A program made the translations under genes and the position numbers. From the NCBI GenBank assembly GCA_051313645.2, contig JBNRSN020000029.1:23312001-23376000 (forward strand): a DNA stretch of 64,000 bases, in the 5' to 3' direction. This stretch comes from Centroscyllium fabricii (lineage: Eukaryota). The notes below the pieces were generated by a model, which worked only from the letters and a program-made list of their open reading frames with translations, made no database searches and was not told the origin of the DNA. Shown one piece after another: positions 10,843 through 48,612 of the stretch; the stretch's first letter is position 1; each line of letters begins with the position of its first letter.

Positions 10843-11035
10843 GATATAATGGCTGAGTTGGTGAGTTTTAACTAAATATGGCGGGGATCGTTCGGAATTG
10901 GAACCCGGGACCTCTCGCATTTTAAGTAGCGCAATTCCCACAGCGAGAATCATTCCGCTTGACCAACGAGCCGCCGAGGACCTGACCGAAATTGCATTAG
11001 GTTGCCCTGCGCTGTTGTGAACCCAGTTCGCAGAG
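10843..11035 (+). pseudogene. Split tRNA-Ser(TGA-type) remnant enclosing an antisense Pro gene
   Basis: 5' half GATATAATGGCTGAGTTGGTGAG (10843-10865); 3' half GAAATTGCATTAGGTTGCCCTGCGC..GAACCCAGTTCGCAG (10988-11035); flanks match the uninterrupted remnants at 1783 and 28498. Confidence 0.6.
10884..10972 (-). pseudogene. Intron-containing tRNA-Pro(TGG), degenerate (intron 10920-10936)
   Basis: Reverse complement GGCTCGTTGGTCAAGCGGAATGATTCTCGCTGTGGG[AATTGCGCTACTTAAAA]TGCGAGAGGTCCCGGGTTCCAATTCCGAACGATCCC. Confidence 0.88.
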
Positions 11036-11152
11036 GACCTGTTCATTGATTTTAAATTTGTTTATCTTTCCTGAAATTCACTTATTTATATGAGCAGTTT
11101 CCCTGAATCTGCTCGCAATTCTCCGCATAAGAACAACGTCGGCGTTAGCAGC

Positions 11153-11223
11153 GGCCGCGTGTCCTAATGGATAATGCGTCCGACTTCGGTGTAAATCGTT
11201 CAGTTATCAGAAGAGTGCAGGTT
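11153..11223 (+). pseudogene. Intron-containing tRNA-Arg(TCG), 3'-deleted (intron 11190-11205)
   Basis: GGCCGCGTGTCCTAATGGATAA..GACTTCGG[TGTAAATCGTTCAGTT]ATCAGAAGAGTGCAGGTT; 3' T-arm and acceptor strand missing. Confidence 0.85.
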
Positions 11224-11464
11224 GTTTAAATATATGGGATAATCTTTTTTTCCCTATTCTGAACCTGGCTTCAAACCGAGCATTTCTTACAATCCCCCAC
11301 CTGAAAATAACGGAAGGCCTTACATGAAGCTGATTGAACATTTTAAACATTGAAGGTCTGAGTGCACGGACAGGACAACTGGTGAAGGGGACCTTCGTTC
11401 AGATTTGTTTCTGCCTAGATGCAAATGACAGGAAATGGAATGATTGAGTACAGTGCATCCGACA

Positions 11465-11546
11465 GACGATGTCGCCGAGACGTTAAAGCTATGAAATGCT
11501 AATCCATTGTGCTCTCCACGCTTGGGTTCGAATATCATCCTCGTCG
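11465..11546 (+). pseudogene. tRNA-Ser(GCT) pseudogene
   Basis: Full length with GCT anticodon and GGTTCGAAT; D-arm and stems mutated. Confidence 0.85.
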
Positions 11547-11871
11547 TTATTACGTTTCACTGAATACTGCGGAAAACAGGATTTGTAATCGCAAATCTCG
11601 TCAAAATCGCAGTGGTGATGCAGCGCTGTGCCACTGCACACATCCTATCTTATTAAAGTAATTGCAGACCACTGGCGATCTTCAACGTCTTGGATGCAGG
11701 TGGGGCAGCAATCGTGACTTCCAGGCACTAAACGAAAGACTTGTGGGAGCAGAGGATCTGTTCCTTGATTTTAGATATGTGTATATTTCCTGAAATTCAC
11801 TTCTTTATGTGAGCTGTTTCCCTGAATCTGCTCACAATTCTTTCCATAAAAGGAACGTCGCCGGCAGCAGG

Positions 11872-11927
11872 GGTCGCACAGCCCAATGGATAAGGCGCCT
11901 GACTTCGGTATGAATCGTTCAGTTATC
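11872..11927 (+). pseudogene. 5' exon plus intron of tRNA-Arg(TCG)
   Basis: AATGGATAAGGCGCCTGACTTCGG[TATGAATCGTTCAGTT]ATC; part of a local duplication of about 11040-11210. Confidence 0.8.
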
Positions 11928-12049
11928 TACAGAATGTCCACTTGCAGAGACAGGGCGCAAAAAACATCAGGCATTAACTCAAAATCCTAATTATAGGGAC
12001 AGTTAATGTTCTGGGGTGCGAAATTCGGTCACAGCTGCAAACAAATATG

Positions 12050-13252
12050 TGTACGAGAGAGAGAAAGTAATTTCTCTGGTGGGAGGGTCCAGCAAAATAG
12101 GCCACAACCGTAAAATTAGAGCTACACCGTTCAAACATGATGGGCCAGAATTTTGTCTGTGCAGGTTGGTGCGTGCGCTAGGACCCTGCGGACACCTATC
12201 GCACGCACCAACATCGCACAGAAGTTGCACCCTGACTTTCCTCCCCGTTCCTGCGCTGCGTGGCAGTCCAGCCACGCTGGGAGCGCAGATGATACGCTGC
12301 CGTCGTGCGTGGGCATCAGTGATGCCCCGCCCCCAGATCACCGATTTACATTAAAAAACGCCCCCAGATCCCCAATTTAAATTAAAAAACTCCCCCGTTT
12401 TAGAGTCGGACCCGGTAGGGAGCAGGGACGTGAGGCGCTGCAGCCAAAGACTCGGCGGGGAGCAGCGCGGGCAGAGCAGCTTCTCAGAGGAAGAAACGCA
12501 AGGTAAGTCTCTGCCATTTATTCTCTTAGATTTTTTACAATAGCTAGATAGTTAAAAATTTCAGAAATTTAACTTTAAAAATTAGCGATTTGAAACAGGT
12601 AAATTAACTTAAAATCGGATTTGTAATTAAAAAAAAAAATACTTTAACTTAAAAATTTAACGCTACCGATTTGGCCGCATTAATCCCCAAAACTGTAAAA
12701 AATTAAAATTAAAGTTAAAAAATTAACTTACCTGCTTTTGTAACTAAATCTTGTCCCTCACGAACGAGTTACTACTGTTTCTCCCGGGTGCAGCTTGTGG
12801 GCCAGTTGCCCACAGAATCACTCACCAAAAATCACCCTTTTTGGATTCCAAATTCTGGGTGCAACTCACTCCTGCGTTTGATGCTGAGGGCCCTTCTCCC
12901 TCAGCATTCGAAATCTCCGTTCCGTAGGCATCCCGCACGGGGCATTTTGGCCCCCTCCGTGAGTGTGCAGCTACTGTGGTCAACACGAAATTCTGGGCCG
13001 ATGTAAGGAAGCGCTTCTTCACCCCGAGGTTAGTGGGAATCTGGAACACTCTCCGACAAAATGCTGTTGAGGCTGGGGTCAATTGCCAATTTTAAAATTG
13101 AGGTGGATAGATTTTTGTAAGGCGAGGATCTGAAGGTTTATGGAGTGAGAGCAGGTAATAGGAGTTAAGACACAGATCAGCCAAGATCGACTTGAATATC
13201 GGAGCAGGCTCGACTGCTCAATGGGCCCCCTCCTGTTTCTATGTTCCTATGA
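12050..13252 (+). mobile_element. CR1 3'-end fragment interrupted by a MITE
   Basis: Reads GHNRKIRATPFKHD|VRKRFFT..VGIWNTLRQ across the insertion; ends TTTCTATGTTCCTATG. Confidence 0.75.
12142..12999. mobile_element. Non-autonomous DNA transposon (PIF/Harbinger-like MITE), 858 bp, 3-bp TSD GAT
   Basis: Termini GGGCCAGAATTT...GAAATTCTGGGCC; GAT at 12139-12141 and 13000-13002; removal restores the host CR1 frame. Confidence 0.85.
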
Positions 13253-13365
13253 TTGAAACAGTTGTAAACACACGTTGCATTTTATTTATATTTAGCAGCA
13301 AATATATTCATGCTGTGCGCAACTCTGCTGTGTTGAGAGCCAACACCCCGCTGCTGATATGTGCC

Positions 13366-13437
13366 ACCGTTGTCGTAAAATGGCTGATGATCTGCGTTGC
13401 AACCGCAGCAGCCTCGGCGCGAATCCCTCTTACAGCC
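13366..13437 (+). pseudogene. Decayed tRNA-His pseudogene
   Basis: TCTGCGTTGCAACCGCAGCAGCCTCGG..CGAATCC followed by CAGCTCGCTTTATG, the same 3' flank as His at 1100. Confidence 0.7.
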
Positions 13438-14826
13438 CAGCTCGCTTTATGTCGTCTGTACTCTGATAGACCTGGGACACATCAGTATTTACCACCTGAA
13501 GAAATGTGTCTTGTTGGTGATGAAAACCTATTTACTCCTTCAAATTCCCGCGCTCTCACAGGCCTGTGTTATTGCTCCATAATACAACCCCGGCAACGTT
13601 ATCTTCCTTCCACAATCGCCAGACTCCTTTACTTTCCTCCTTCCATTTCATTGTCACTTTGCTGCGGTACTGCGTAATCTAACATTCACTTTCAGCTGTT
13701 TACCCCGTATTTTTGATCTGCTACCACCGCTGCTTTGGGCACAGGACCCATTAGCTCCAATGTGCCTTACAATCAGTCGATTCATTTAGATATGTGGGAC
13801 TGCTCGACAGAGAAGTGCTGGAAAAATGGGGCCGGCCTTCGGACGGAAAGCGGCCCGATTTTTCATGAAATTTTCTTAGGGAATCTTGTGATCCAGGGCC
13901 TTAACTGAAGAACTGGATTTCATTATCGTGCTGGTTGGCGCTTTTCAAAAAGCAGTTGAGATGCGTAAATGACGGGCAGCGCCAGCTCGCTGCCAAGGAG
14001 GGTTTAAATGTGAAACTTCGGCCGCTGGGGCGGTGCAGGAAGATCGAATGTGATACGACTTAATCTTTACAGGTCTTTTGAATTGTGCGATTGAAACAAT
14101 CAATGGAAACACGAAAAGGGCACTAGTGGGTGAAAGCAGCGATTACAAGAGGTTGGCCATAATTGAAAGGTCTTTGAATGTCCGTGGTACGGGACGCTGT
14201 GTTCATTATGAAGAGCGGGAGCAGAATAAAGTTTAAAAGAAATGAAATGTACAAAGCTGGTGCCAATCAGAAAACTGCGCTGGCCTGAAATTGATAGAAA
14301 GTATGAAATTAATTTAATTTTCAATTGATAAAGTAAACCATTGTTCCAGCTTCCAAGGCTGGATTGCTCTTTGTTGGCCGGCGGGGCCATGTTGGGCCGA
14401 AAGGGCCTCCTTTCGTGCTGTAACCTTCTATGATTCTATGATTCCTCATCGTTTGATTTTCCCGTTAATCTTTCAAGTATTGTAAAGCCCCTGTAGATAG
14501 AGTTCGCTCTCATCTTCTCCCATCGATGTGACAATGAAACAGGAGGAGGCGAGGATTGCCCCGAACAGCAGAGCTGGGCACTGACTCTGGTTCTATTGCT
14601 GCAGAAGTTGTTCAGTTCCTCTAAAGATTGCCCTCACCATTGAAACGCCTGTTATAACTCACTGGCTTGAAACGGTCTATGTTATAATAAGTTGGAAAGT
14701 TTCAATCAAATAGATTTTAATACATCTGCAGAAAGACGATGTTAGGATTGGAACTGGTAAGCTTTTGATCACAGAGTCAACATCAAAATCATGCTTCATG
14801 TCAAATAATGCAGGAAAGTGCGAACA

Positions 14827-15237
14827 AGCGAGGCCCAGAGCACAGCGGCAGCGCGACGTGGAGCGGACCTAGGGGGGGTCCCATAGTCGGCGGCGGCGGC
14901 GGAAATAGCAGCGAGGAGGCGGCTACAAAAGTCGCCGAGGAGCGAGGCCCAGAGCACAGCGGCAGCGAGGCCCAGAGCACAGCGGCAGCGCGACGTGGAG
15001 CGGACCTAGGGGGGTCACATAGTCGGCAGTGGCGGCGGAAATAGCAGCGAGGAGGCGGCTACAAAAGTCGCCGAGGAGCGAGGCCCAGAACACAGCGGCA
15101 GCGAGGCCCAGAGCACAGCGGCAGCGCGAGGTGGAGCGGACCGAGGGGGTGTCCCATAGTCGTCGGCAGCGGTGGAAATAGCAGCGAGGAGGCGGCTACA
15201 AAAGTCGCCGAGGAGCGAGGCCCAGAGCACAGCGGCA
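14827..15237 (+). repeat. CR1 5'UTR tandem monomers (~136-137 bp period, ~3 copies, with 23-bp subrepeat)
   Basis: AGCGAGGCCCAGAGCACAGCGGC units at 14941, 15077, 15214. Confidence 0.9.
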
Positions 15238-15241
15238 GGAG

Positions 15242-15287
15242 TTTCGCGGGCTTTTTTCAAAGCCAGGGGGCGGGGCCAATCTATTGG
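15242..15287 (+). promoter_or_regulatory. Candidate CR1 internal promoter: E2F-like site, GC box, CCAAT and inverted CCAAT
   Basis: TTTCGCGG at 15242; GGGGGCGGGGC-CAAT-CT-ATTGG at 15266-15287; TATATAAG near 15562. Motif match only. Confidence 0.45.
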
Positions 15288-15726
15288 TACCCATATAGGT
15301 GGAGCAGTTGCTAAACCCGAGACACTACACTAGTAGTCTCTCCCACCCTTCCACCTCCTCTAACCTTTAGGGTTAGAGGGAATTTAAAAGGTAGGTGATT
15401 TATTGTTTATATTTAGAGACTGAACTTAAGTGGAAGCGGCTCCTGGACTGAGGTAGCAGTCGGTGGCAGCAGCAGGACCAGGGCAGGAGTTTTTCGCGGG
15501 TCTTTCTTTTCAGGAGCAGGCAGCGGGACGGTACTAGGAGGAGACAACAGGAGGCGGCGGCTATATAAGGGCAAGCAGGGTAAGTGATTTTTTTTATTTT
15601 TATTTTTCTTTATTTTTCTGCGGTCTCTGTGGTATAACGGGGACATCTGGTTGACTAGCACCCTAGTATATATGTTGTTTTTTTGGTGGTGTTAATTTTT
15701 TTTTAAAGTAATTAGAGGGGTACCTC

Positions 15727-16677
15727 ATGTCAGTGGAGCTCGGTGCCGTGCTTTGCTCCTCCTGCCACATGTGGGAAGCCAGGGACACCACTGGAGTCCC
15801 TGATGACCATGTGTGTGGGAAATGCGTCCACCTTCAGTTACTGACTGACCGCATTGCGGCACTGGAACTGAGGGTGGATGGGTTATGGAGCATTCGCGAT
15901 GCTGAGAGGTGCGTGGATGACTCATACAGTGAGCTGGTCACACCGCAGGCTAAGGGTGTGTAGGCAGAAGGGAAATGGGTGACCATCAGAAAGAACAGTA
16001 AGGCCAGGCAGGAAGAGCAGGAAACCCCTGTGGCCATCCCCCTCACGAACAAGTATACCGTTTTGGATACTGTTGGGGGGAACGACCTACCAGGGGAATG
16101 CAGCAGTGGCCAACCTCCGGGCACTGGGGTTGCTTCTGCTGTTCAGCTGGGGGGGAAAAGGCGTGAGAGAGCGATAGTGGTAGGGGACTCTATCTTAAGG
16201 GGAGCAGATAGGCGTTTCTGTGGCCGTAGACGTGACTCGAGGATGGTCTGTTGCCTCCCTGGTGCCAGGGTCAAGGATGTCACGGAACGGCTGCAGGGCA
16301 TCCTGAAAAGGGAGGGAAACCAGTCAGAGGTCGTTGTACACATAGGAATCAGCGACATAGGTAAAAAGAGGGATGAGGTCCTGCAACAAGAATTCAGGGA
16401 GCTAGGCAGAAAATTAAAGTGCAGGACCTCAAAGGTTGTAATCTCTGGATTACTCCCTGTGCCACGATTTAGTGAGTATAGGAATAGAAGGATAGAGCAG
16501 CTTAATACGTGGCTCAAGACTTGGTGCAGGAGGGAGGGCTTTAGTTTCCTGGATAACTGGCCCTGTTTCTGGGAAAGGTGGGACTTGTATGGGGATGACG
16601 GTCTCCACCTTAACCGGAGGGGGACCAATATCCTGGCGGGGAGGTTTGCTAGCATGGTTGGGGAGTGTTTAAACTAA
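15727..16677 (+). pseudogene. CR1 ORF1 (zinc finger, coiled coil, SGNH esterase) with one in-frame stop
   Basis: CSSC..CGKC, VVGDSILRG, VVHIG, DGLHLN; ORFs 15727 and 15979 share a frame separated by TAG at 15961. Confidence 0.92.
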
Positions 16678-16679
16678 CT

Positions 16680-19634
16680 TGGCAGGGGGTTGGGATAGGT
16701 AGTGGAAAAGCGGGAGGTCATAGGAAGCCAGAAACAAATGGTAGGAAGGTGAGAAACAATAAGCAAGGGAGAGAAACACAAAGGGCCAAACAAATTCATA
16801 ATAGAGTGATCAGAACAAGCCTAAAGGCTTTGTATCTTAATGCAAGAAGCATTAGGAACAAGGTGGATGAACTAGCTGTGGAAATAGAGGTAAGCAAATA
16901 TGAGTTGATTGGAATTACTTAAACATGGCTGCAGGGGGGGCAAGGCTGGGAACTCAACATCCCGGGGTATACAACATTCAGAAAGGTTCGGCACAAAAGA
17001 AAGAGAGGTGGGGTGGCATTGCTGGTGAAAGAGGGGATAAATGCAATTGAAAGGAAGGATATTAACTCAGATGATACGGAATCTATATGGGTAGAACTAA
17101 GAAATAGTAAAGGGCGGAAAACATTAGTGGGAGTTATATACAGGCATTCAAATAGTAATATGGAGGTGGGGGACGGCATAACAAGGGAAATTAGAGAAGC
17201 TTGCAATAAGGGCACAGCTGTCGTCATGGGCGACTTTAATCTACATATTGATTGGACTAGCCAAGTTAGTAAAAATACTGAGGAGGAGGAATTCCTAGAA
17301 TGTCTACGGGATGGGTATCTGGACCAATATGTCGAGGAACCAACTCGGGATCAGGCCATCTTAGACTGGGTATTGTGCAATAAGAAGGGACTAATTAGCA
17401 ATCTAGTTGTACGAGGCCCCTTGGGTCGGAGCGATCATAATATGATCGAATTCTCAGTTGAGATGGAAAGTGAAAAGATCAACTCAGAGACTAAGGTCCT
17501 GAATTTAAATAAAGGGAATTATGAAGGTATGAGAAGGGAATTAAGCAAGATAGATTGGGCAGTGTTCCTGGGGGGATTGAATGTGGATAGACAATGGCAA
17601 GCATTCAAGTATAGGATGGAAGAAATACAGAACTCGTTCATAACGGTTTGGCATAAGAATAAACCTAGAAAGGTGACTCAACCGTGGATAACAAGGGAAA
17701 TAAGGGATAACATTAAACCCAAAAAATGGACATATCAATTGGCCAAAAAAAGTACTAGGCCGGAAGATTGGGAGCAGTTCAGGATACAGCAAAGGAAGAC
17801 AAAGGGATTAATCAGGAGGGGGAAGATACATTATGAATGTAAGCTTGCGGCAAACATAAAAACTGACTGCAAAAGCTTTTATAGGTACATCAAGAGGAAA
17901 AGATTGGTAAAATCCCAAGTCGGTCCCCTGCAGTCCGATTCAGGGGAATATATAATGGGGAATAAAGAAATGGCAGACCAACTAAATTCATATTTTGGTA
18001 CTGTCTTCACAAAGGAGGACACAAGCAACCTCCCTGGGATAGCAGCGAACATAGGGTCTAATGCAAGGGAGGAGCTGACAGATATCAGTATTTCTAGGGA
18101 AATGGTTTTGGGGAAGTTGAAGGGATTGAAGGCCGACAAATCCCCAGGGCCTGATAATCTACATCCTAGGGTACTTAAAGAGGAAGCCCTGGAAATAGAG
18201 GGTGCTTTAAGGATCATTTACCAGAACTCGATAGACTCTGGATCAGTACCCATGGATTGGAGGGTGGCTAATGTTACCCCACTATTTAAAAAGGGAGGGG
18301 GGCAGAGAGAAAGCAGGGAATTATAGACCAGTAAGCCTTACATCAGTAGTGGGCAAAATGCTCGAGTCCATTATCAAGGATGTAATCTCGGAGCATTTGA
18401 CAATTAGGGATGAGATCGGACAGAGTCAACATGGATTTACAAAAGGTAAATCATGTTTAACTAATCTATTGGAATTCTTTGAGGAAGTAACTCGGAAAAT
18501 AGATGGGGGAGATCCAGTAGATGTGATGTACCTTGACTTCCAGAAAGCCTTCGATAAGGTTCCACATAAAAGATTAGCATGTAAAATTAATGCTCATGGG
18601 ATTGGGGGCAAAGTTTTGATGTGGATAGAGAACTGGTTGGCAGACAGAAAACAGAGAGTTGGAATTAACGGCTCGTTTTCTGAGTGGCAGCCGGTGACTA
18701 GTGGAGTACCGCAGGCGTCTGTCCTTGGACCTCAGCTGTTTACAATATATATTAATGATCTGGATCAGGGAATTGAATGTAATATCTCCAAATTCGCGGA
18801 TGACACCAAACTAGGAAGGGGGGGGCAGGCTCTGAAGAGGGTGTCAGGAAGTTACAGGGCGATTTGGATAAGTTGGGGGACTGGGCAGATAGATGGCAGA
18901 TGCACTATAATGTGGATAAATGTGAGGTTATCCACTTTGGGGGCAAAAACAGGAGGGTAGATTACTACTTAAATGGCAATAGATTGGGAGATGGTGAGGT
19001 GCAGAGAGACCTGGGTGTTCTTGTGCACCAGTCGCTGAAGGCGAGCACGCAGGTGCAGCAGGCAGTTAGGAAGGCAAATGGTATGTTGGCCTTCATATCA
19101 AGAGGGTTCGAGTATAGGAATAAGGATACCTTACTGCAGCTGTACAAGGCACTGGTGAGACCACACCTCGAGTATTGTGTACAGTTCTGGTCGCCTCGCC
19201 TGAGGAAGGATGTTCTTACCATGGAAGGAGTGCAGCGTCGTTTCACCAGGCTGATTCCTGGAATGGTAGGAATGACCTACGAGGAGAGATTGTGTAGTCT
19301 GGGCTTGTACTCGTTGGAGTTTAGAAGATTGAGAGGCGATCTCATTGAGACGTATAAAATTCTGAAAGGTCTGGACAGGTTAGATTCAGAGAGAATGTTT
19401 CCAATGGCGGGGGAGTCCAGAACCACGGGCCACAGTCTAAGGATAAGGGGTAAACCATTTACGACAGACATGAGGAGGAATTTCTTCACTCAGAGAGTGG
19501 TGGGCCTGTGGAATTCCCTGCCACAGAGGGCAGTGGAGGCCAGTTCGTTGAACATATTCAAGAGGGAATTGGATATATTTATTCAAGCTAAAGGGATTAA
19601 AGGTTATGGAGAAAAGGCGGGGACGGTGTACTAG
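16680..19634 (+). pseudogene. CR1 ORF2 (APE endonuclease plus reverse transcriptase), one stop and two G-run frameshifts
   Basis: YLNARS, IGIT*TW (TAA 16920), [38 protein letters not shown]; frame changes near 18297 and 18820. Confidence 0.95.
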
Positions 19635-20164
19635 CTTGCTAAAGATCAGCCATGATCTCATTGAATGGCGGAGCAGGCTCGAAGGGCTGAATGGCCTACT
19701 CCTGCTCCTATCTTCTATGATTCTATGATAAGTAAAGCCAGAAAGACTCACAATTCCACAGCGCCTTTCATGGCCACCGAACGTGCCAAATCGCTTTAGA
19801 AACAATGAAATACTTTCGAAGTGACTTCACTGCTGTATGGAGGAAACGCAGCAGCCAATGGAATGGAAGGAAGGGTGGGAAAATCTATCTCTAATCCGTG
19901 ATCTCTATTGCATTAGAACTGGTTTAATTATTACTTTGAGAAAGTGGGAGAATTTTACACAGCGACTGAAAATATTGTCTTACTTGGGGACTGTAAGAGA
20001 GAGAGACAGAAAAACAGAGATAGATATTGAGACTGAGACAAAGTGATAGGTGGAAAGATTGAAAGACCGACAAGAAGAACAGCAGAAAGATTTAGAGATA
20101 AATCTGCATTTGACGAACAACGACTATCCCTATATAGAGTAACGTGAAACGCTGACATGGCATC

Positions 20165-20257
20165 GGCTCTGTGGCGCAATGGGTAGCGCATTGGACTAGT
20201 ATAACTGATCGGCTTAAAATTATTCAAAGGTATTGGTTCGAGTCTTAGCCGGGATCG
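20165..20257 (+). pseudogene. Intron-containing tRNA-Arg(TCT)-body pseudogene with altered anticodon
   Basis: GGCTCTGTGGCGCAATGGGTAGCGCATTGGACT-AGTA..[~20 nt]..ATTCAAAGG..GGTTCGAGTC. Confidence 0.82.
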
Positions 20258-20509
20258 GTGGTGAAATTTTGCCTCTGTCATTGTATCTTTCGAAACCATT
20301 TTCCGCTGGTGTTACAGGTTAGATCAGAAGTGGCTGATCAAGGAAGCCTGCGAACACTAACAGGGGGAAAACAGAGAGAAAATATACAGTTAGGTAGAGA
20401 TAGATTGATGGCTGCAAAGAACGTGAAGGGTTTGTGGGTAATGTCTGTGCGGAATTTACGGTGCAGATTGGGAGAGGTTCCTCCCGCCTCCTGAAATCAA
20501 CAAATTTTT

Positions 20510-20960
20510 CCAAGACTTGAGCACAAAAATCTAGGCTGACAGTTCAGTGCAATACTGGTGCAATAGCAGGCAATGACCACGGAGGAGGCGCTAACGCGCG
20601 GTCAAAAAGCAGACCGTTAACCGGTCTGTTAAAAACTCCATCCACCACTTCGAAAGAAGACACGACAAGAAGAAGGAGATGCCGTCTTTTGGGTGAGGCG
20701 GTAAAGCGATGGCCCTGTATGGCCTCTCATGTGAACTGCAAATACTATTTCGACGAAGAGCAGGGTAATTAGCCCTGTTGTCCTGGCTAATATTTATCCC
20801 TCAATTAACAGAACTAAAACAGGATGTCGGTTCCTATCTGATTGTGGGAGCTTGCTGTGCGCAATTTGGCTGCCACGTTTCCTATAACACAACAGTGAAT
20901 ACACGTCGCAAGTACCTCATTTGTAGTAAAACTTTTTGGGACATCATTGATCAATGCAAA
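20510..20960 (+). mobile_element. Deu-domain SINE interrupted by ~115 bp of unrelated sequence
   Basis: GACTTGAGCACAAAAATCTAGGCTGAC...GGAGATGCCGTCTTT..CTATTTCGACGAAGAGCAGGG..GTCCTGGCTAATATTTATCCCTCAA..GTGGGAGCTTGCTGTGCGCAA. Confidence 0.75.
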
Positions 20961-37822: not shown

Positions 37823-37904
37823 GCTGCGATGCTCGAGTGGTTAAGTCGTTGGACTGGTCATCAAATAAGCTTTCCCCGCGCACATTCGAACCTTGCTCGC
37901 AGCG
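37823..37904 (+). pseudogene. tRNA-Ser(TGA/CGA-type) pseudogene
   Basis: GCTGCGA/TCGCAGC acceptor stem, GAGTGGTTAAG, TTGGACT; anticodon mutated; 3' flank shared with 45721. Confidence 0.8.
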
Positions 37905-38400: not shown

Positions 38401-38803
38401 CATAGAAACATAGAAGATAGGAGCAGGAGTAGGCCATTCGGCCCTTCGAGCCTGCTCCGCCATTCAATGAGATCATGGCTGATCATCCAATTCCAGTACC
38501 CTGTCCCTGCCCTCTCCCCATATCCCTCGATCCCTATCGAGCCTGCACCAACACATATCCCACTCTATCCCCGTAACCCCACATATTCAATCCCCCTAAC
38601 ACTAAGGGTCAATTTATCCTGGCCAATCAACCTAACCCGCACATCTTTGGACTGTGGGAGGAAACCGGAGCACCCGGAGGAAACCCACGCAGACACGGGG
38701 AGAATGTGCCCACTCCACACAGATAGTACCCGAGGTTGGATTTGAACCCGGGTCTCCAGTGCTGTGAGGCAACAGTGCTAACCACTGTGCCACCATGCCG
38801 CCC
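38401..38803 (-). mobile_element. Full-length V-SINE (HE1-like): tRNA head, V domain, CR1-derived tail
   Basis: Head GGGCGGCATGGTGGCACAGTGGTTAGCACTG; V core TTCTCCCCGTGTCTGCGTGGGTTTCCTCCGGGTGCTCCGGTTTCCTCCCACAGTCCAAAGA; tail nearly identical to CR1 3'UTR 19645-19725. Confidence 0.92.
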
Positions 38804-39206
38804 CGTTTCGAATTGGACCACTGACTTAAATGTTGTACTAATATCTCCGTATAAACTTGTACAGTAATGTTAATAAAACCAAATTTTAGGAAAGTTCAAA
38901 GCCTTGGTTGATCTTAGCTCTGATTACCCTAAAGAGTGAAGAGAGTTAAAAGAAAAACCGTACCGTTCCTGCTGTCCAAGCTCACATTCTCCTCGCGAGC
39001 ATGCTACACCTAGCTCATGGCATGGTTCAAATTTCTAATAGATAGTCGGAATGGGAAACCTTATCGAACTGTGTGGGAGAGCAGCGGAGTGCTGCGCGGA
39101 CATTTAACTCACTGGGCGAAACTTTTTCTTCCTTGTTCTGAATCTGGCTTCAGCCCAACCATTAAAACCGATGGCAGTACTAATCTATTGTGTTCCGCGA
39201 TATAAG

Positions 39207-40187
39207 TCTGTGAAGTTAGGCAACCTCACCTCCCCCCCTTACCCTGAACACGGGGGCCCCACAAGGTTGTGTGCTGAACGCCCTCCTCTACTCCCTCTTC
39301 ACTCACGACTGTGCGGCTGTCCATGGCTCCAACACGATCATCAAGTTCGCGGATGACACCACGGTGGTTGGCCAGATCACCAACAACGACGAGTCAGCCT
39401 ACAGGGATGAGATCCAGCGCCTTGTGGGTTGGTGTGCCGACAACAAACTGGCACTGAACACCAAGAAAACCAAGGAGATCATAGTGGACTTCCGGAGGAC
39501 TGGAAGCAGAAGACACACCCCCATCTTCATCCAAGGGGCTGAGGTGGAAAGGGTGTCCAGCTTCAAGTTCCTCGGGGTCCACATCTCGGAAGATCTCTCC
39601 TGGTCACTAAACACCTCCTCTCTGGTTAAGAAGGCCCAACAGCGCCTGTACTTCCTAAGGAAGCTGAAGAAAGCCAGGCTGTCATCCGGCATCCTCTCCA
39701 ACTTCTACCGCTGCACAATAGAAAGCATACTGACAAGCTGCATCACTGTCTGGTATGGAAATTGCACTACCTCGGACCGAAAAACCCTGCAGCGGGTAGT
39801 CAAAACTGCCCAACGAATTACCGGTACACAGCTACCGTCAATGGAAAGCATCTACCTCAAACGCTGCTTACGGAGGTCTATGAACATTATTAAAGACCGC
39901 ACACACCCCAGCCACAGTCTGTTCACCCCCTGCCCTCCGGGAGATGTTACAGAGCAATTTGCACACGCACGACTATATTTCAGAACAGCTTCTTCCCCAG
40001 GGCTGTCAGACTCCTGAACTCTAAAAAGAAACTCCGGTACCTGCACGCCTGATAATGTACTTTACTGTATGCAATTTGCATGTAATTTATTTGCACTACT
40101 CTCGGGAGAGTCGAGACTTCGTCTCGTTGTATTGTACTAGTACTCTGCAATGACAATAAAACTTGAATTGAATTGAATTGAATTGAA
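39207..40187 (+). mobile_element. 5'-truncated Rex1/Babar-clade LINE
   Basis: ORF 39271-40017: LLYSLFTHDC..IIKFADDTTVVG.ITNNDESAYR..KTKEIIVDFRR..KKAQQRLYFLRKL; AATAAA then (TTGAA)5 tail. Confidence 0.9.
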
Positions 40188-40451
40188 GTTGTACTCTAAC
40201 TATTTCTAGCCAACAATGTTAGCCTCCATTTACAATCATGTATTTCCACTTACAAATTGTTTTTTCAGAAAAAATTGCTCTGGTGCTACACTGTCGTCTG
40301 TCTCGACATCCTGATATTATAAACTCTGTCATAAATATACTGCTCTCAAATTGCTGTGAGAGCGAACTGAAAGGGAAATGTGAAGATATTCGAAATAAAT
40401 GAACACGATGGCGATACAATTCATTGTTTGTGAAGCTATTGATACCTGGAT

Positions 40452-41968
40452 ACATAGACAGGAGCAGGAGTGGTCCATTCGGCCCCTCGAGCCTGCTCCG
40501 CCATTCAATGAGATCATGGCTGATCATCCAAGTTCAGTACCCTTTTCCTGCCTTCTCCCCATAGCCCTTGATTCATTTAGCCTTAAAAATATATATTAAC
40601 CCCCTTGTTCACTATATTTAATGAATAGGCCTCTATGGCCTTCTGTGGTAGCGAATTCCTCAGGTTCACCACTCGCTGGGTGAGGAAGTTGCTCCTCATC
40701 TCTGTTCTAAGTGGCTTACCCCTTATCCTTAGACTGTGACCCCGGTCTGTGCTGCCCTGCCATCGGGAACATCCTTCCTGCATCTAGTCTGTCGAGTCCT
40801 GTTAGAGTTTTATAAATTTCAGTGAGATCCCCTCTCATTCATCTAAGCGAGTATAAGCACAATCGGCCCAATCTCTCCTCATACGTTATTCCTGCCATAC
40901 CAGGTATCAGCCTGGTGAATCTTCGTTGCACTCCCTCCATGGCAAAAAGATCCTTCCTCAGATAAGGTGACCAAAACTGCACACAATACTCAAGTGGTGG
41001 TCTCACCAAGGCCCTGTACAACTGCAGCAAGATATCCTTGTTCCTGTACTCTAACCATCTCGCTAGGAAGGCCAAATAAACATTTGCCTTATTAACCGCC
41101 TATTGCACCTGCATGCTTACCTTCAGTGACTGGTGCACAAGGACACACAGGTCCCGTTGCATTTCCCAGATTCTCCCAATACATTTCAGCTCAGATAATA
41201 ATTTGCCTTGCTGTTTTTGCTACCAAAGTGGATAACATCGCATTTATCCACATTATATTGCATCTGCCATGTTTCTGCCCAATCGCCCAACCTGCCCAAA
41301 TCAAACTGGAGTTTCTCGGCATCCTCCTTACAGCACATACTGCTTTGCGTCATCTGCAAACTTGGAGATATTACATCTAGTTCCCTCGTCTAGATCGTAT
41401 ATATTGTGAATAGTTGGGGTCCAATGATCGATCCCTGCGGTACCCCACAAGTCACTGCCTGTCACTCGGAAAGGGAGCCATTTATTCCAACTCTTTGCTT
41501 TCTGTCTGCCATCCAGTTCTCTATCCAAGTCAATACTTGCGCCCAGTCCCATGTGCCTTAACTTTGCATGCTAAGCTCTTATGTGAGACCTTATCAAACG
41601 CCTTTTGAAAGGCTAAATACACCACATCCACTGGATCTCCCTTTTCTATTTCATCAGTTACATTCTCAAGAAATTCCAGTAGATTAATCATGCTCGACTT
41701 ACCCTTTGTGAATCCATGTTTACTTTGTCCGATCCGTTTACTGTTTACCAAGTGCTCTGCCATTACATCTTTTATAATGGACTCTAGCATTTGCCCCACT
41801 ACCGATGTGAGGCTTACCGGTCTGTAACTCCCCTCTTTCTCTCCACCACCTTTTCTGAATAGTGGGGTAACATTAGCTACCCTCCAATCCATGGGTACTG
41901 TTCCAGAGTCTATTTAATTTTGGAAGATGATCAGGAATGCATCTATTATTTCTAGGGCCACTTCCTGA
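40452..41968 (-). mobile_element. 5'-truncated CR1 (RT), reverse strand
   Basis: [21 protein letters not shown]; KFADD; RPPLEYCVQFWSPYLRKD; 3'UTR near 40452. Confidence 0.92.
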
Positions 41969-42730
41969 AGAAACCTAGATTGGGGACGGGTTAAAGTGTT
42001 GTATAAACACATGATCAGTGTTTTGTTTTGCTAGGTTTGTTTTCGCTTTTTTAATGTAAGCAAGTGCTGTAGCACCAAGGTAAGATACAGATTGAGTTGA
42101 GTTAATCAGCCATGCCATAATTGAATGGCGGACAGGCTCCGTGGCCTGAATGGCGTCCACCTGTTCCTGTGTTCCTATGTATGGTTCAAACACCTTAAAT
42201 AAACCTCTCTGTTTTCTCCACAGATGATGAATGAGCCGCCGTGTGGTGCCTGTATTATTATTGCTGTTTTAATTTGGGTTTTGGGGATGAGCCGATGGAA
42301 GTGGAAACCTACCGTGTTTGGTTTTCTGGCAGGAGCAAATGAAGTTGGCCTATAAATCACCTCCAGACAAATTCACCAAAATATTCCCCACCTCACTACC
42401 GCACAACCGCAAGCACTGCTCCACTCTACCATATAAACCCAATTAGTTCCCCCTCAATTCAACAATCTTCACAAGCGTCCCCACTATTATACAACCTCAG
42501 GTGTGCATGTACAGAGTGTGAGCCTTTTACAGTGGGTTTTATACAACAGCGACCGCCAGTCCTCATGTGTCACACTAAGTAAATCTAGATAGCATAAATA
42601 TAAGATCCTCAATAATAAATCCAGTAGGTAATTCAGGAAAAACTTGTTTTTGCAAAGAGTGGCTGGAATGTGAAAATACGACAAGCACCAGGCATCATTG
42701 AGGGGAGAAGAGCAATTTTAGCCGTGATTT

Positions 42731-42806
42731 GCCTCCGTGCCTTAACTGGTCAAAGCGCCTGTCTAATAAATAGCATATAGCTTGGGTTTAAATCCCAGCG
42801 CTATTT
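42731..42806 (+). pseudogene. tRNA-Thr(AGT) pseudogene
   Basis: GCCTCCGTGCCTTAACTGGTCAAAGCGCCTGTCTAATAAA..AATCCCAGCG; downstream flank resembles 27540. Confidence 0.8.
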
Positions 42807-43929
42807 CTTTAAATAACAAAATATTGTCTTATGATCCCACAGAGGTGGGTTGCTTCTCTTTTGAAAGTGCTGTAATCCTTTGGGATGGGAACGGATAAAG
42901 GCTCAACACACGTACATCATAAATATATATTAAAGTCTGATTGGCATTCGGCCAACGTTATAACATTTCCTCCAGTGATCAACATAAATTTATCGGTTTA
43001 TTAATGGCGATTAAAAAAATTAGTCATCCTGATACTGCCTTTAATTATATTTTCGTGTCATTGATTTAATAAACTGCACAACTGTTTTATAAAAATCAGA
43101 CCGTAAATAACCCCGTGCTCTGGTTGCACAGAATTCCAACTCCTGATCCACCAGGGGACGCTCCACCCAGCAGCTGTGAGAGCTGCAAATATACTGGTGG
43201 CACCCCCGCCAGTTACAAATATATTCCTGACTTATGTTCGATGTACATCTTGTTTATCTTTGCAAGTTACAAGTGTCTGTAGATATATCTGAATTAATTA
43301 TTCATTTATTTGATTTCATCTGTCTTAATTGTAAATTGAGGCAGTGCATTCCAGACCCCAACAACTCGCAGCGCAAAACAATGGTTCCTAATGTCGTCTC
43401 GGGTTCTTCTGCCAATTACCTTTAATTTGTGTCCTCTGGCCACCGACTGTTTGACCACTGGAAACATGTTTCTCCTCATTTACGATATCAAATCCGTTCA
43501 TGAATTTAAACACCTCTATCAAAATTTCTGTTCTAAAGCGAACAACCCCAGCTTCTCCAGTCCCCCACATTCATAAGTCCCTCTTCCCTGGTACCATTCC
43601 AGTAAATCACTTCTGTTAATTTCTTTCTTAAATTAATAACTATAGTGAAACACTTATAAGAAAAAGAACGAACAGAACAAAAAAGAGAGTAATAAATACA
43701 GAGCAAAATGGACGTGAATGTTTAAGGACATAAGAAATAGGAGCAGGAGTAGGCCATTCGGCCCTTCGAGCCTGCTCCGCCATTCAATGAGATCATGGCT
43801 GATCTGAGAAATTGAAATAACAGAAGATCTGAGTTTTATGATCGGTCAGTGAGAGGATTCCATCTTTCAATCGGACTTTGGCTGTTCGATTTACTGATAA
43901 AGACAGACAGAGAGAAGCACGGTGCGCAG

Positions 43930-44002
43930 GCCCGGCTAGCTCAGTCGGTTGCGCATGAGACTCTTAATCTCAGGTTCGTGGGTTCGGGACCCACGTTGGG
44001 CG
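43930..44002 (+). tRNA. tRNA-Lys-CTT: tRNA-Lys(CTT), full length but mutated in D-arm and T-loop (probably impaired)
   Basis: GCCCGGCTAGCTCAGTCGGT..GAGACTCTTAATCTC..CCCACGTTGGGCG; about 5 substitutions including A58. Confidence 0.85.
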
Positions 44003-44430
44003 GTTCCCTTTACTGTTGATTTTACAGGCGATCGCCAGCAATTCCGTGGCAGAGAGACCAAGTAGTGTTTTTTGTAAATGCAATACAACAACAATATCAG
44101 AAAATCTCTCCATGATTCTGGACTCTTATCGCTCTCTCGTTGAACTTCATATCATTTCACCTGCAGTGCGGCTCAGTGGGACTTCGGGTCAGTCTCTCCC
44201 TTCACAACCCATCAGTGCCGGGAAAACAAAGGGGAATTTAAAACACATGTTGTGCTCTGTAACTTCTTATAAAAACTTCAGTTTACTTCACTCAGTGTCC
44301 AGCCCTGTGAGGTCTCCCCTGGTGGGTCAGCTTTAGATGTTTATAAACACGTCAGCAGAACATTAACATAACCTGAGCTCCGCGATCTGGTCGGGTCCCA
44401 TTCCCCCGAAGTGATTAATGAGCAGGAGGG

Positions 44431-44768
44431 ATACTATCTGTGTGGAGTTTGCACATTCTCCCCGTGTCTGCGTGGGTTTCCTCCGGGTGCTCCGGTTTCC
44501 TCCCACAGTCCAAAGATGTGCGGGTTAGGTTGATTGGCCATGATAAATTGACCCTTAGTGTTAGGGGTATTGAATATGTGGGGTTGCGGGGATAGGGTGT
44601 GATATGTGATGGTGCAGGCTCGATAGGGATCGAGGGATATGGGGACAAGGCAGGGATAGGGTACTGGGTTTGGATGATCAGCCATGATCTCATTGAATGG
44701 CGGAGCAGGCTCGAAGGGCCGAATGGCCGACTCCTGCTCCTAGTTTCTATGTTTCTATGTTTCTATGA
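44431..44768 (+). mobile_element. 5'-truncated HE1-like V-SINE
   Basis: V domain plus CR1 tail, ends (TTTCTATG)3. Confidence 0.9.
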
Positions 44769-44814
44769 TTCGAGTTTCTTTAAAAGAATGACACGAAAAT
44801 CACTTTGATGTGCG

Positions 44815-44842
44815 GCCGAAATAGCTCCGTTGGGATTCGGCG
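44815..44842 (+). pseudogene. Internally deleted tRNA-Phe(GAA) remnant
   Basis: GCCGAAATAGCTCCGTTGGGA (first 21 nt of Phe, one mismatch) joined directly to TTCGGC (3' acceptor strand), then a T-run. Confidence 0.6.
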
Positions 44843-45322
44843 GTTTTTAGATATTTTGTGACTCTTTTTTGGATCCTTTTCTCGAACTTACCAATTTAAA
44901 ATGAAGTCTTTTATCCGCCACTGAAGGGTTGGGTTTGAATAGAGAGAGACATCAAGGATGGGAACTATTTCTATTGTCTGTATTTAGCTTTTATTTCTCT
45001 GCCTCCATCTGTCCTTTTCTCTGCTTTATTCTCTCCCGGTGCCGGGTGTGCATTTGCCAAAATTGATGCCTTTTTCACATCTCGGGGCGGTCAGACACGC
45101 TCTGTCTGTCTGTTACTGCTTGTGACCATTAAAGGGAAAAGGCCGCCAGTTAAACGTTTATCAGCAAACCGAAGGAAGACAAATAAACTGAAAGGTGTGT
45201 TACTCCGCCCAAATGCAAATGTGAAATCGATGTTGCTCAAAACAATTTTCCCCTGACAGTTTATGCAGATTTTTTGTAAAGTCTGGATTTTCAATGGCAG
45301 AAGAAACCGAGCAAGTAAGAAA

Positions 45323-45685
45323 TACAGAAACACAGACGATCGGAGCAGGAGTCGGCCATTCGGCCAATCGAGCCTGCTCCCCCATTTTTGATGAGATCAT
45401 GGCTGATCATCCAAACCCAGCACCCACCTCCTACCCATATCCGCCGATACCGCGACTCTAAGAACTATATCTCACACACATACTTATGGTCAATATTTTT
45501 TTGTGTTATCTCCAATTCACCTAACCTGCATTTCTTTGGGTTGTGGGAGGAAACCGGAGGAAACCCACACAAACACGGGGAGAACATGCAAACTCCACGC
45601 AGAGAGGTCCTGGGCCAAGCACAATTGGAACCCAAGAGCTGCCGATGGCGAGGCAGCAGTGCTAACCACTGCGCACCGTGTCGTC
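45323..45685 (-). mobile_element. Older HE1-like V-SINE
   Basis: Tail, V domain and head GCAGTGGTTAGCACTGCTGCCTC on reverse strand. Confidence 0.8.
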
Positions 45686-45720
45686 CGAGTAAAGCAGTTG
45701 ATTCGAATAATGAAAGAACG

Positions 45721-45797
45721 CGCTGCGAGCAGTGCTCGAACCTGCGCAGAGAAACCCAATTATCAAGTGCAACGTCTTGACCAATCGGCCATCGCAA
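45721..45797 (-). pseudogene. tRNA-Ser(TGA) pseudogene
   Basis: Reverse complement GCGATGGCCGATTGGTCAAGACGTTGCACTTGA..GCGCAGGTTCGAGCACTGCTCGCAGCG. Confidence 0.82.
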
Positions 45798-45809
45798 ATA
45801 AACTGCTGA

Positions 45810-45885
45810 TGACCCGAACAGGAATTAAACCTGTTCCCTGAGCGATATTAGCAGCGCGCTCTAAAAAAACCTGTGCTAACCGGCC
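45810..45885 (-). pseudogene. tRNA-Ile(AAT) pseudogene, 12 nt upstream of the Ser gene
   Basis: Reverse complement GGCCGGTTAGCACAG..TTAGAGCG..TGCTAATA..CGGGTCA. Confidence 0.8.
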
Positions 45886-46206
45886 GGTAATAGCTGTCAG
45901 GGTTGTTAGAGCCCCGCGCTGGGCGGTTTGTGTTTTACTTCTCACACTGGGTCACAGAGTTATTGTAGAGACAGTGATCACACCACAACCCTTAAACATT
46001 GCTCCGATGTAAAATAATCACTCTTATTAAACCGAGTGTGTACATCGAAAGTAACAGAAAAGAGCACTTAATTGTGAAAAGAATGATTGCACCAACAGTG
46101 AAGGGAATCTGCCGGCCTCCGCAATTCTCATCCTGTGACTGTGGGAGTTTGGTTCGGGCAGAGGTTTGACTGTGACGACACGAGCCCTCGCCGCACCCCC
46201 GCTACA

Positions 46207-46540
46207 CAGAAACATAGAAGATAGGAGCAGGAGTCGGCCATTCGGCCCCTCGAGCCTGTCCCGCCAGTTAATGAGACGATGGCTGATCAGTCAATCTCAA
46301 TACACTGTCCCTGCCTTCTCCCCATGTCCCTTGAACCCTTTAACCTTAAGACATTTCTCGAAATCCTTCTTTAATATATTTAAACAATTGGCCTCAACTG
46401 CCTTCTGTGGTAGAGAATTCCAGAGGTTCACCACTCTCTGGGTGAAAAAAATCCTCCGCATCTCGGTCGCAAATGTCGTACCCCTTACCGTTAGACTGTG
46501 ACCCCTGGTTCTGGACTCCCTCGCGAGCGGGAACATCCAT
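46207..46540 (-). mobile_element. CR1 3'-end fragment
   Basis: MFPLARESRTRGHSL..FFTQRVVNLWNSLPQKAVEA plus 3'UTR. Confidence 0.88.
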
Positions 46541-47956
46541 CCATGTTAAACCTGAAAAGTGTCTGGCAAAGATTCAGAACTGGCGAGGAGGAAGTAACAC
46601 TTCGGGGAGGTTTGTTTTCCTGAATCCCGAACAATTCTGGCTCTTTTTGACATGTCCCCATTCAATGTACAGACCCTCTCCTCATTGTGCCCCTCGAGAA
46701 CTGTCACCTCATATTTATCGCCAGTTAATTTCAAGACATGTTTTACACACCGGTCCACGATTGACCTGGAGTCCCAAATACTGTGTCAAATGTAGCACTT
46801 TCTGAAATACTACTCGGGCCGCGTGTTAGTCAAGAGAGACAGAGGGTAATTAGGCAGACTAAGCATTGCAGAGCCTTTGCTGCAGTGAAACAGGGGCTCG
46901 TTCCATGAAACAGTGATACAGCTTTCCGAATAGAGAACTGATGGTTCCACTGAAACCAAAGGGTTTGAGTTGTTAGCAGGCAGGACAGATAGAATGTGCG
47001 GCGTGTTTAAACTAGATGTGGGTTTTGTTGCTGTAGTTGTTCTGTGGCGTATCTTCAAGGAGATGATTCTGAATGCAATGAATCAACGTGTAACCATGCA
47101 ATGCAAAGGTAATGAGCGTCATTACAGTCCAGCCTGGTTCAATGCAACAGGCAAACTATTCATCCAGATGACAGAAAGGGTATTTAAGACCATGGCACTA
47201 AATGACACAGAATTCAGCCAGCTTCAAGAACAGAAGGCAAACCAAGAGTGTAAAAACTGCAACTGAATGGGGAAGTAAATATTGAGATTGAATATAGCAA
47301 GTGAAGAGAAGGGAAATATCTGTGCCAGAGGTAAGTTGTGACATTATTCACATTCCGACTTTATCTGCATAGGTCTGTTGAAGGGGCGATTGAGAAGAAT
47401 AGAGGAGAAATGAAAAGGAAGGAGGAATGAGGGAAAGGTCTTCTGATTGCCCGGAGCGCAGGACGCTGTGTTCGGAACCGGCAGACTTTAAAGCGCATGT
47501 GTAGGAAAGTAAAGAGTGAACCTGTGTGTGAAACGATCACAAGAAAGTTGTGCTCGGAGTTGTGCCCTTAAGACAAGTTAAAAGTTGTCAGGAAAACTGC
47601 TGTTGTGAAAGCACAAAATTAAAAACAGAAACTGCTGACAACACTCAGCAGGACAGGCAGCATCTGTGGGGAGATACCCACTTCATCAGGTCTTCATTGT
47701 GCACTTTGAACGATACCTCACACAGCTCACATCTCACAATCTCATCACCTCCGAGAAGAGAGGGTTCACAATCTCCGCTCCGCCTTCATTCAAGAATTGC
47801 AGTGATCTGTTTTAATTTCAACAAGTTGCGATCATTGCAGGGGCAAAGACCAGAACCCGAGACAGGTTCTGACAAAATTACCTTTCTAAGCCTTTTTACG
47901 TAAGATTCAGTGAAATGCTCGGAAAATGTACAAGCATCAAACGTGCAAAGGCATCA

Positions 47957-48020
47957 CGACTCGAACCCACGCGCACATACGATTAGCAGTCCATCGCCTT
48001 AACCTCTCGGCCACCTCGTC
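47957..48020 (-). pseudogene. tRNA-Ser(GCT) with intact 5' half and deleted 3' parts
   Basis: Reverse complement GACGAGGTGGCCGAGAGGTTAAGGCGATGGACTGCTAATC then deletions. Confidence 0.85.
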
Positions 48021-48252
48021 GCACCGATGGAGAGCTCTCAGCCATTGCATTGGCTGCTTTTAGCATCTAAGTAGAAATATCCTGTAAGGAATGTACTTCA
48101 CCGTTTATCCTGCCGATGCACACAGTTCTACAATGTTGAAAATGTACAAGCAGCTTATTATAAGCAAAAGGCCTTCCGATGCTGCAGGTGCGGAACTGTC
48201 AGAAATGGTCGGGTTGAGGGAAGACATAGAACAAGTGTCTGAGCTACTTAAG

Positions 48253-48342
48253 CGACCGCGGCCCGGCTTGAACCTGCAATTTTCTGATAATTGAAGAATA
48301 CGCAACCGACGTCAGACGCTTTATCCTTCAGGTCACGCGGTC
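48253..48342 (-). pseudogene. Intron-containing tRNA-Arg(TCG), full length, mutated (intron 48289-48305)
   Basis: Reverse complement GACCGCGTGACCTGAAGGATAAAGCGTCTGACGTCGG[TTGCGTATTCTTCAATT]ATCAGAAAATTGCAGGTTCAAG..CCGCGGTCG. Confidence 0.87.
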
Positions 48343-48521
48343 GCTAATGCTGCTGAGTCGCTTTTTATGGGGCGAATCATGTGGAGATTGAAGCAAATTG
48401 CTGAAAATAAGAAGTGGATTGAGAAAAATATGAACATATTTCAAATTAATTAATAGGTCTCTCCGAGCTGGGTTCGCACCGGCGCAGGGAAACCCAATGC
48501 AATTTCAAACACGTCCTGGGC

Positions 48522-48612
48522 GGCTCGTTGGTCTAGGGGTATGATTCTCGCTTTGGGAAATTTCATGAGCCGGAAATGCGAAAAGTCCCGGGTTCAAATC
48601 GCGGACGACTAC
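48522..48612 (+). tRNA. tRNA-Pro-TGG: Intron-containing tRNA-Pro(TGG): consensus 5' exon, 19-nt intron (48558-48576), mutated 3' exon (likely pseudogene)
   Basis: GGCTCGTTGGTCTAGGGGTATGATTCTCGCTTTGGG[AAATTTCATGAGCCGGAAA]TGCGAAAAGTCCCGGGTTCAAATCGCGGACGA; TTTT at 48620. Confidence 0.9.

Follow-up and report, generated by a model that had tools for sequence, protein, structure and literature searches.

Decayed intron-bearing tRNA-Pro genes in Centroscyllium fabricii point to a large and probably spliced tRNA family

We analysed a stretch of 64,000 nucleotides from the shark Centroscyllium fabricii (assembly GCA_051313645.2, contig JBNRSN020000029.1, here C811, positions 23,312,001 to 23,376,000 of the forward strand; hereafter the window), in which an initial annotation had noted tRNA-Pro(TGG) genes with short inserts at the canonical intron position. 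The window holds decayed copies of a large intron-bearing tRNA-Pro family, intact members of which, in tandem arrays elsewhere in the genome, are likely to be transcribed by Pol III (RNA polymerase III) and likely to be spliced by TSEN and RTCB into ordinary tRNA-Pro; judged from the sequence, we give this reading a probability of roughly 0.78. The intact array genes would yield a pre-tRNA-Pro that folds with an anticodon–intron helix, TSEN would cut it, and RTCB would ligate the halves into a tRNA-Pro identical to the product of an intron-less gene. We infer cleavage by TSEN from the pair between U32 and the third-last intron base (A at −3), the 3-nt bulge and the predicted anticodon–intron helix; the sole trace of splicing as such is an intron-less retrocopy from the sister Arg(TCG) family.

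The window comprises one complete tandem unit of 48,917 bp and the beginning of the next: in a self-comparison, positions 1-15087 recur at 48918-64000 with 99.1% identity. Three insert-bearing Pro-type genes lie in each unit, as first described, and a repeat of one of them lies in the next:

1..48917, no strand: tandem duplication unit, ~49–60 kb; its Ile(TAT) gene recurs seven times along C811:23.31-23.63 Mb
10884..10972, minus: decayed tRNA-Pro(TGG); intron of family B, 17 nt, at 10920-10936; exons altered at 8 positions, U33 and C61 among them
35680..35768, minus: decayed tRNA-Pro with 13 exon changes; intron of 17 nt at 35716-35732; anticodon now CTG, but CGG in a sister copy
48522..48612, plus: decayed tRNA-Pro(TGG); family-A 19-nt intron at 48558-48576; 5' exon perfect, 6 changes in the 3' exon
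59800..59888, minus: the 10884 gene again, in the unit that follows; 8 exon changes

Exon changes were scored against the genome's own intron-less Pro(TGG) gene (locus L038), from which the 5' exon of the 48522 gene does not differ at all, in keeping with its earlier assignment to the Pro-TGG type. The inserts, given beforehand as 17–19 nt, measure 17, 17 and 19 nt and lie between position 37 and the 3' exon; in every window insert the third base from the end is an A opposite U32, which bears out the proposed anticodon–intron pair. The remark that no copy retains an intact 3' exon was also correct, and none of the four has an intact mature domain: with 6–13 exon changes, each has lost stems or invariant bases, namely U33 and C61 in the 10884 gene, the A box and anticodon in the 35680 gene, and the anticodon and acceptor stems in the 48522 gene. 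The description of all three loci as Pro(TGG) holds for 10884 and 48522 but not for 35680: read in register, its anticodon is CTG, and since CGG stands in the sister copy of the preceding unit, upstream, and in two related retrocopies, the gene is of Pro(CGG) descent. ARAGORN at its default setting and Rfam either miss or miscall the window Pro copies. Across 198 kb around and including the window, all 14 Pro copies carry at least five exon changes. The window copies are pseudogenes, and are relevant only as pointers to the family elsewhere. Such uniform decay would suit a history in which a one-off DNA insertion killed a tRNA-Pro gene and the copies, never spliced, spread neutrally in tandem repeats and as passengers of short interspersed elements (SINEs).

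The family was sought across the 7.2 Gb of the genome. There are 155 exact intron-bearing Pro matches, 33 with TGG and 122 with other anticodons (100 of the latter listed); reversed control patterns gave none, and the matches are therefore not due to chance. In all 155, as in all window copies, the insert falls exactly between N37 and N38. Intron-less Pro loci number 12 by exact pattern and 18 at two mismatches, about nine of them perfect genes with T-run terminators that between them cover all three Pro anticodons. A first look for the intact Ser/Arg/Pro module, to which the Pro genes belong, returned 685 candidates. From the best-scoring arrays, on contigs C480, C945 and C1377, we took 190 kb, a choice that favours intact copies; this sample holds 87 Pro copies (73 AGG, 7 CGG, 3 TGG, 3 AGA and 1 GGG), none of which lacks an intron. 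Exons are perfect in 37 of the 87 (31 AGG, 5 CGG and 1 TGG), and 33 of those 37 are followed by a T4 run, so that an intact mature domain, A and B boxes and a terminator occur together in 33 of the array copies. Further intron types comprise one of 16 nt in a CGG array on C3, one of 19 nt in a perfect CGG gene at C811:25.18 Mb, and one of 22 nt in a solitary AGG gene with one exon change. In all, five dissimilar Pro intron types share both their position and the A at −3, which is difficult to reconcile with a single insertion spread by neutral copying.

The early emphasis on TGG was misplaced. AGG accounts for 73 of the 87 array copies and is likely to be the main working form of the intron-bearing Pro genes; only one perfect-exon TGG gene was seen in the sampled arrays, and perfect intron-less TGG genes are present. 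Intron-bearing TGG genes have left many retrocopies, those with perfect exons number three among the 30 TGG loci fetched, and the array TGG copies seen are decayed except for one with an 11-nt intron: the intron-bearing TGG genes were active recently and are now mostly decayed. The 11-nt intron, a deletion derivative of the 19-nt form, is found with CGG and TGG in genes with perfect exons (L024, L003 and the C480 array; 7 of the 87 copies), and is near the lower size limit for tRNA introns. Beside the cluster of intron-less Pro(TGG) genes, at L038:261-332, there is also a tRNA-Pro body with a TCC (Gly) anticodon and several other changes, probably a pseudogene.

Recent amplification by itself yields many near-identical copies, as the neutral account would have it. 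In the window an intron-bearing Arg(TCG) gene, decayed, lies head to head with each Pro gene, and beyond it comes a Ser(GCT) gene, also decayed. Across 77 distinct modules, both exons have a diversity of 0.029, the flanks 0.068 and 0.088, and the intron 0.126. On C480, Pro has no fixed changes (71 copies, 31 of them perfect), and its exons equal those of the intron-less genes at all 71 scored positions, whereas Arg has seven fixed changes (69 copies, none within one change) and Ser eight. The opposite is seen in other arrays: at C811 24.6-24.7 Mb it is Arg that has no fixed changes (20 copies) and Pro that has seven (17 copies), and at C811 22.8 Mb the figures are none for Arg and eight for Pro. 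As the Ser reference was taken from one of the arrays, we relied on the comparison of Pro with Arg; Fisher tests of their decay gave 0.013 and 0.006, and the reciprocal table 0.0006, in two array lineages. This reciprocal decay of the Ser/Arg/Pro module argues for selection on the intron-bearing genes, and the intact Pro and Arg(TCG) genes are apparently under selection. That Pro should stay unchanged while its neighbours fixed seven and eight changes, and the reverse elsewhere, is not expected of neutrally spread dead genes, an account that we regard as improbable.

Arg(TCG) is a second intron-bearing family absent from the human list. It gives 101 exact matches, with three intron-less loci among the 100 listed, and forms arrays on C811 and C922. 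In three array members (L090, L091 and L108) most of the intron has been deleted in the DNA, with two extra anticodon-loop bases kept.

What selection maintains may be judged from the distribution of changes within the Pro gene. In the 81 array copies with no more than six changes (6 of the 87 were dropped), minor bases have a frequency of 0.018 in the A box, of 0.009 in the B box and of 0.011 at the other 50 exon positions; at N34 it is 0.12, and the changes there are almost solely between Pro anticodons. The acceptor stem, the anticodon stem and G35/G36 are conserved to the same degree as the promoter boxes. Exon conservation beyond the A and B boxes fits a working tRNA, not a promoter, as the target of selection. 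Otherwise the intact arrays could persist because they act as chromatin elements bound by Pol III/TFIIIC or provide unspliced precursors or small RNAs, with splicing slow or incidental and little mature tRNA made. Such a role finds some precedent in zebrafish, most of whose predicted tRNA genes lie in inaccessible chromatin (PMC11574265), but a promoter alone would not require conserved stems and anticodon bases, and we consider it unlikely. It counts against our reading that the selection test draws on two array lineages, and that the arrays were picked from the best matches to the intact module.

Human TSEN requires a pair between base 32 and the third-last intron base, together with a 3-nt bulge (PMC10539383, PMC10275265), and the Pro introns are consistent with such a pair. 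An A is present at −3 in 84 of the 87 array copies; among 71 distinct Pro introns, −3 is A in 64 and G in 3, with A at −2 in 47 and at −1 in 50. In Arg(TCG), which has C32, the corresponding base is G in 24 of 29 introns. Taking genes with at most one exon change, 36 of 37 distinct loop/intron combinations have the 32:−3 pair, and the mean helix run is 3.7 pairs in the canonical register versus 0.2–2.1 in four others; shuffles averaged 1.0, and 0 of 2000 reached the observed 3.7, although the combinations are related and this is not a probability. On the whole, then, the comparison of registers speaks for the canonical fold. On folding, the main AGG intron is predicted to form five pairs and the bulge, with a pair probability of 0.89, and the CGG intron of family D reaches 0.80. 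Moreover, base −5 tracks N34, being T with AGG and G with family-D CGG. G is also found at −5 in 7 of 18 TGG combinations, the 48522 gene among them, versus 1 of 31 AGG combinations, with a loose family filter and probably reflecting one event.

Two observations detract from this fit. The 32:−3 pair probability is no more than 0.11 in six of the eight folded representatives, including all four with TGG, because the A-run slips; and the pair is retained in 35 of 36 combinations from decayed copies, which implies that it is largely inherited. According to these models, the AGG introns give a textbook anticodon–intron helix, the TGG forms fold poorly in that register, and the family A intron fits AGG best. 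Poor folding of the TGG and 11-nt introns in the TSEN register is what a chromatin or precursor role would allow.

Retroposed copies bear on transcription. Of 50 loci examined, 33 are Pro-SINE fusions, 5 are array members and 12 are other, several of them solitary or fused to a long interspersed element (LINE). The fusions share one layout: a few leader bases, the tRNA with its intron, the trailer as far as a T-run and, directly behind, a full SINE head. All fetched loci together give 43 distinct Pro chimera insertion sites, which include relatives of the 35680 and 48522 genes; two chimeras combine the 48522 intron with a near-intact body. The SINE parts differ from their majority by a median of 2.7% (30 copies). 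As the same SINE head follows the tRNA in 33 of the 50 loci, these copies might be one composite Pro-headed SINE family descended from a master element, and then uninformative on tRNA transcription. We regard this as very improbable: intron, anticodon, trailer length and junction bases vary between chimeras and track different array genes, the one shared head–body junction of a composite tRNA-headed SINE is not seen, and precursors of intron-less Pro, Arg(TCG) and Ile(TAT) have been fused in like manner. This variety, and the recurrence in other isotypes, argue for independent chimeras of the U6-SINE template-switch kind. Fusion of an unspliced leader, intron and trailer to a SINE, starting a few bases upstream of the gene and ending at the T-run, indicates that the precursors are, or were, transcribed in the germline. 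Against reading too much into this, two of the retrocopies derive from a gene in the 35680 lineage that had been damaged beforehand; damaged genes are evidently transcribed as well, and transcription is not proof of function. Likewise, a search of the chimeras for target-site duplications found nothing convincing.

The SINE and LINE tails are putatively HE1- and HER1-like, as would befit a shark or ray. HE1 is listed for sharks and rays, with no sequence given (PMC3747384). Two dispersed loci are end-to-end tRNA chimeras, one with intron-bearing Pro and then intron-bearing Arg(TCT) (L027, C1044:242.87 Mb) and one with intron-bearing Ile(TAT) and then a Ser gene (L182, C933:344.54 Mb), which suggests repeated template jumps between U-tailed precursors. 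One Pro-SINE chimera has been multiplied by segmental duplication, with identical flanks (L221-L225 and L232, on C23, C125, C389 and C791; similar matches lie on C1433). In L137 and L138 an intron-less Pro(TGG) retrocopy has a trailer of ~55 nt, which passes through the first T5 terminator and only then meets the SINE head; it records read-through by Pol III.

A spliced retrocopy would be a trace of intron removal. For Pro none was found: among the 18 intron-less Pro loci found at up to two mismatches none has an A- or B-family array trailer, as compared with 43 unspliced insertions. Two candidates were rejected, L041, which shares one family-C base, and L033, which has a 9-nt family-C-like trailer; in both, the other diagnostic bases do not fit. 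The absence of any spliced Pro retrocopy is as expected if the insert were never removed from a dead gene, and 43 unspliced insertions against none spliced is equally what a long-lived precursor kept for other purposes would leave. However, Ile(TAT), obligatorily spliced since all 17 of its matches bear an intron, has likewise left only unspliced retrocopies (5 of 5).

For Arg(TCG) there is one positive case. L070, one of seven SINE-fused Arg copies, is an exactly intron-less Arg(TCG) followed by a 20-nt array trailer, as at window position 11225, and a SINE head. The only intron-less Arg(TCG) gene of its type has another trailer, and the intron deletions found within arrays leave two extra bases in three of three cases, unlike L070, which looks like a splicing fossil. 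It is nonetheless a single case and could have arisen by a double template switch. A search for the Arg junction at two mismatches gave 624 matches, 100 of them listed, and was swamped by Arg(ACG) and Trp genes; most of the 624 appear to come from the C731 Arg(ACG) array. A tighter search left three loci, and another candidate, L186, proved to be a separate intron-less gene. Spliced retrocopies thus stand at 0 of 43 for Pro and 1 of 12 in the comparison set (Arg 1 of 7, Ile(TAT) 0 of 5), p ~0.2 by hand. In the retrocopy record a single case supports splicing of Arg(TCG), and nothing can be read from it for Pro.

A further point against our reading is that perfect intron-less Pro genes exist for all three anticodons: the intron-bearing family is not needed for decoding and, were it dead, these genes could provide all tRNA-Pro. 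In the module tree, TGG, CGG and AGG genes of the family fall together within clades, which makes it probable that anticodon switching spread the intron across the Pro isoacceptors, in a direction that the tree leaves unrooted. A more far-reaching proposal, which we offer tentatively and hold at somewhat less than even odds, is that the amplified arrays supply, via TSEN, most of the tRNA-Pro of three anticodons and the tRNA-Arg(UCG) of this lineage, and probably of sharks generally; that an ancestral Ser/Arg/Pro module split into complementary arrays; and that the chimeras preserve, as fossils that can be dated, the pre-tRNA pool of the germline, with one intermediate already spliced but not yet trimmed. 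Two further decoding classes in a vertebrate would then depend on tRNA splicing.

Human intron-containing tRNAs belong to four families, Tyr(GUA), Ile(UAU), Arg(UCU) and Leu(CAA), spliced by TSEN and RTCB (PMC10275265, PMC10539383). Compared with these families as there described, the present genes are alike in having an intron of 11–25 nt between N37 and N38, a Y32 facing a purine as third-last intron base, a 3-nt bulge predicted for the main AGG and family-D CGG introns, and a mixture of intron-bearing and intron-less genes. They differ in isotype, being Pro(AGG, CGG, TGG) and Arg(TCG), in occurring in large tandem arrays, and in the excess of intron-bearing over intron-less matches, ~13:1 with pseudogenes and retrocopies included. 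The expanded repertoire envisaged at the outset is supported, as one of intron-bearing and probably spliced tRNAs, for Pro, with three anticodons, and Arg(TCG), both of which have canonical-position introns in intact genes, but not for Ile(TAT) and Arg(TCT), which are already standard human intron families. Budding yeast has ten intron-containing tRNA-Pro(UGG) genes (PMC4090602); these share the isotype and the canonical intron, but they are fungal, and here AGG dominates and intron-less paralogues coexist.

Abundant intron-containing tRNA loci have been reported in shark genomes (Squalomix preprint, 10.1101/2025.06.08.657570), where, too, tRNA loci cluster on few chromosomes. This count is very likely the same phenomenon seen in bulk by tRNAscan-SE; the preprint's main text names no isotype or anticodon for these loci and is not known to offer a test of selection, structure or splicing. 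The chimeras have precedents in U6-L2, U6-Mon-1 and U6-AnolisSINE2, which arose by template switching, in human pre-tRNA retropseudogenes (PMC4476161), and in primate tRNA/LINE-1 chimeras at 21 loci, mostly of antisense halves (10.1101/2025.02.02.635956). As in the U6-SINE and tRNA/LINE-1 examples, a single insertion joins a Pol III transcript, on the 5' side, to the tail of a SINE or LINE; unlike those described there, ours are full-length, sense, end-unprocessed pre-tRNAs with the intron, at least 43 for Pro alone. Our literature search, which left subscription papers mostly outside its reach, located no report of intron-bearing Pro or Arg(TCG) genes in vertebrates; GtRNAdb tables may hold such calls, among them, presumably, single low-scoring human entries. 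In Xenopus, the oocyte-type tandem tRNA gene repeats are a multi-tRNA module amplified many times and including an intron-bearing gene; tandem multi-tRNA amplification is common to both systems, and the isotypes differ.

Vertebrate tRNA splicing is usually described for four families, and two more selected, amplified isotype groups would show that vertebrates have acquired or retained tRNA introns more widely than one would suppose from human and mouse. They would also give isotypes and a mechanism to the bulk count of intron-containing loci in sharks. Where intron-bearing and intron-less genes of identical mature sequence coexist, the purpose of a tRNA intron (modification, expression level or germline supply) can be tested in a natural setting, and the Pro system would also test the spread of introns through anticodon switching.

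The remaining tRNA genes of interest in the window are the module partners of the Pro genes and other intron-bearing neighbours:

11153..11224, plus: tRNA-Arg(TCG) with intron, decayed and lacking its 3' end; pairs divergently with the 10884 Pro gene; recurs at 60069-60140
35949..36034, plus: tRNA-Arg(TCG) with intron, decayed; pairs with the 35680 Pro gene
48253..48342, minus: tRNA-Arg(TCG) with a 17-nt intron, decayed; pairs with the 48522 Pro gene
11465..11546, plus: decayed tRNA-Ser(GCT), third gene of the module
36271-36353 plus, 47972-48020 minus, 581-664 minus and 2291-2376 plus: further decayed tRNA-Ser(GCT) module genes
1965..2054, plus: tRNA-Arg(TCG) with intron, decayed, in a module that has lost its Pro gene; recurs at 50882-50971
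3770..3864, plus: near-intact tRNA-Ile(TAT) with a 21-nt canonical intron, a known vertebrate intron family; repeat at 52687-52781
20165..20258, plus: decayed Arg(TCT)-type gene with an insert, anticodon no longer TCT

Of the intronic neighbours first listed, Arg(TCG) does carry an intron, though decayed, and Ile(TAT), with its 21-nt intron, is wholly or almost intact; at 20165 the Arg(TCT)-type gene has decayed and lost its TCT anticodon. His(GTG) (1100-1172), Thr(AGT) (27459-27532) and Lys(CTT) (43930-44002) genes in the same tandem unit pass both ARAGORN and Rfam and, with the Ile(TAT) gene, may be the reason for the unit's persistence; decayed paralogues of the His, Thr and Lys genes occur at window positions 13367, 27794, 42733 and 777. 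A low-threshold ARAGORN call of 'Arg(tct)' at 7793 is not a tRNA, such calls being mostly noise, and a MIR821 match at 29485 is far under its cut-off. Elsewhere in the genome, a tandem repeat of 1,287 bp that spans C731:0.2-0.36 Mb and continues further carries an intron-less Arg(ACG) gene. Finally, the tandem unit of the window contains a GC-rich 136-bp tandem repeat in three copies (14827-15238) and a 14-bp minisatellite in 11 copies (21726-21880).

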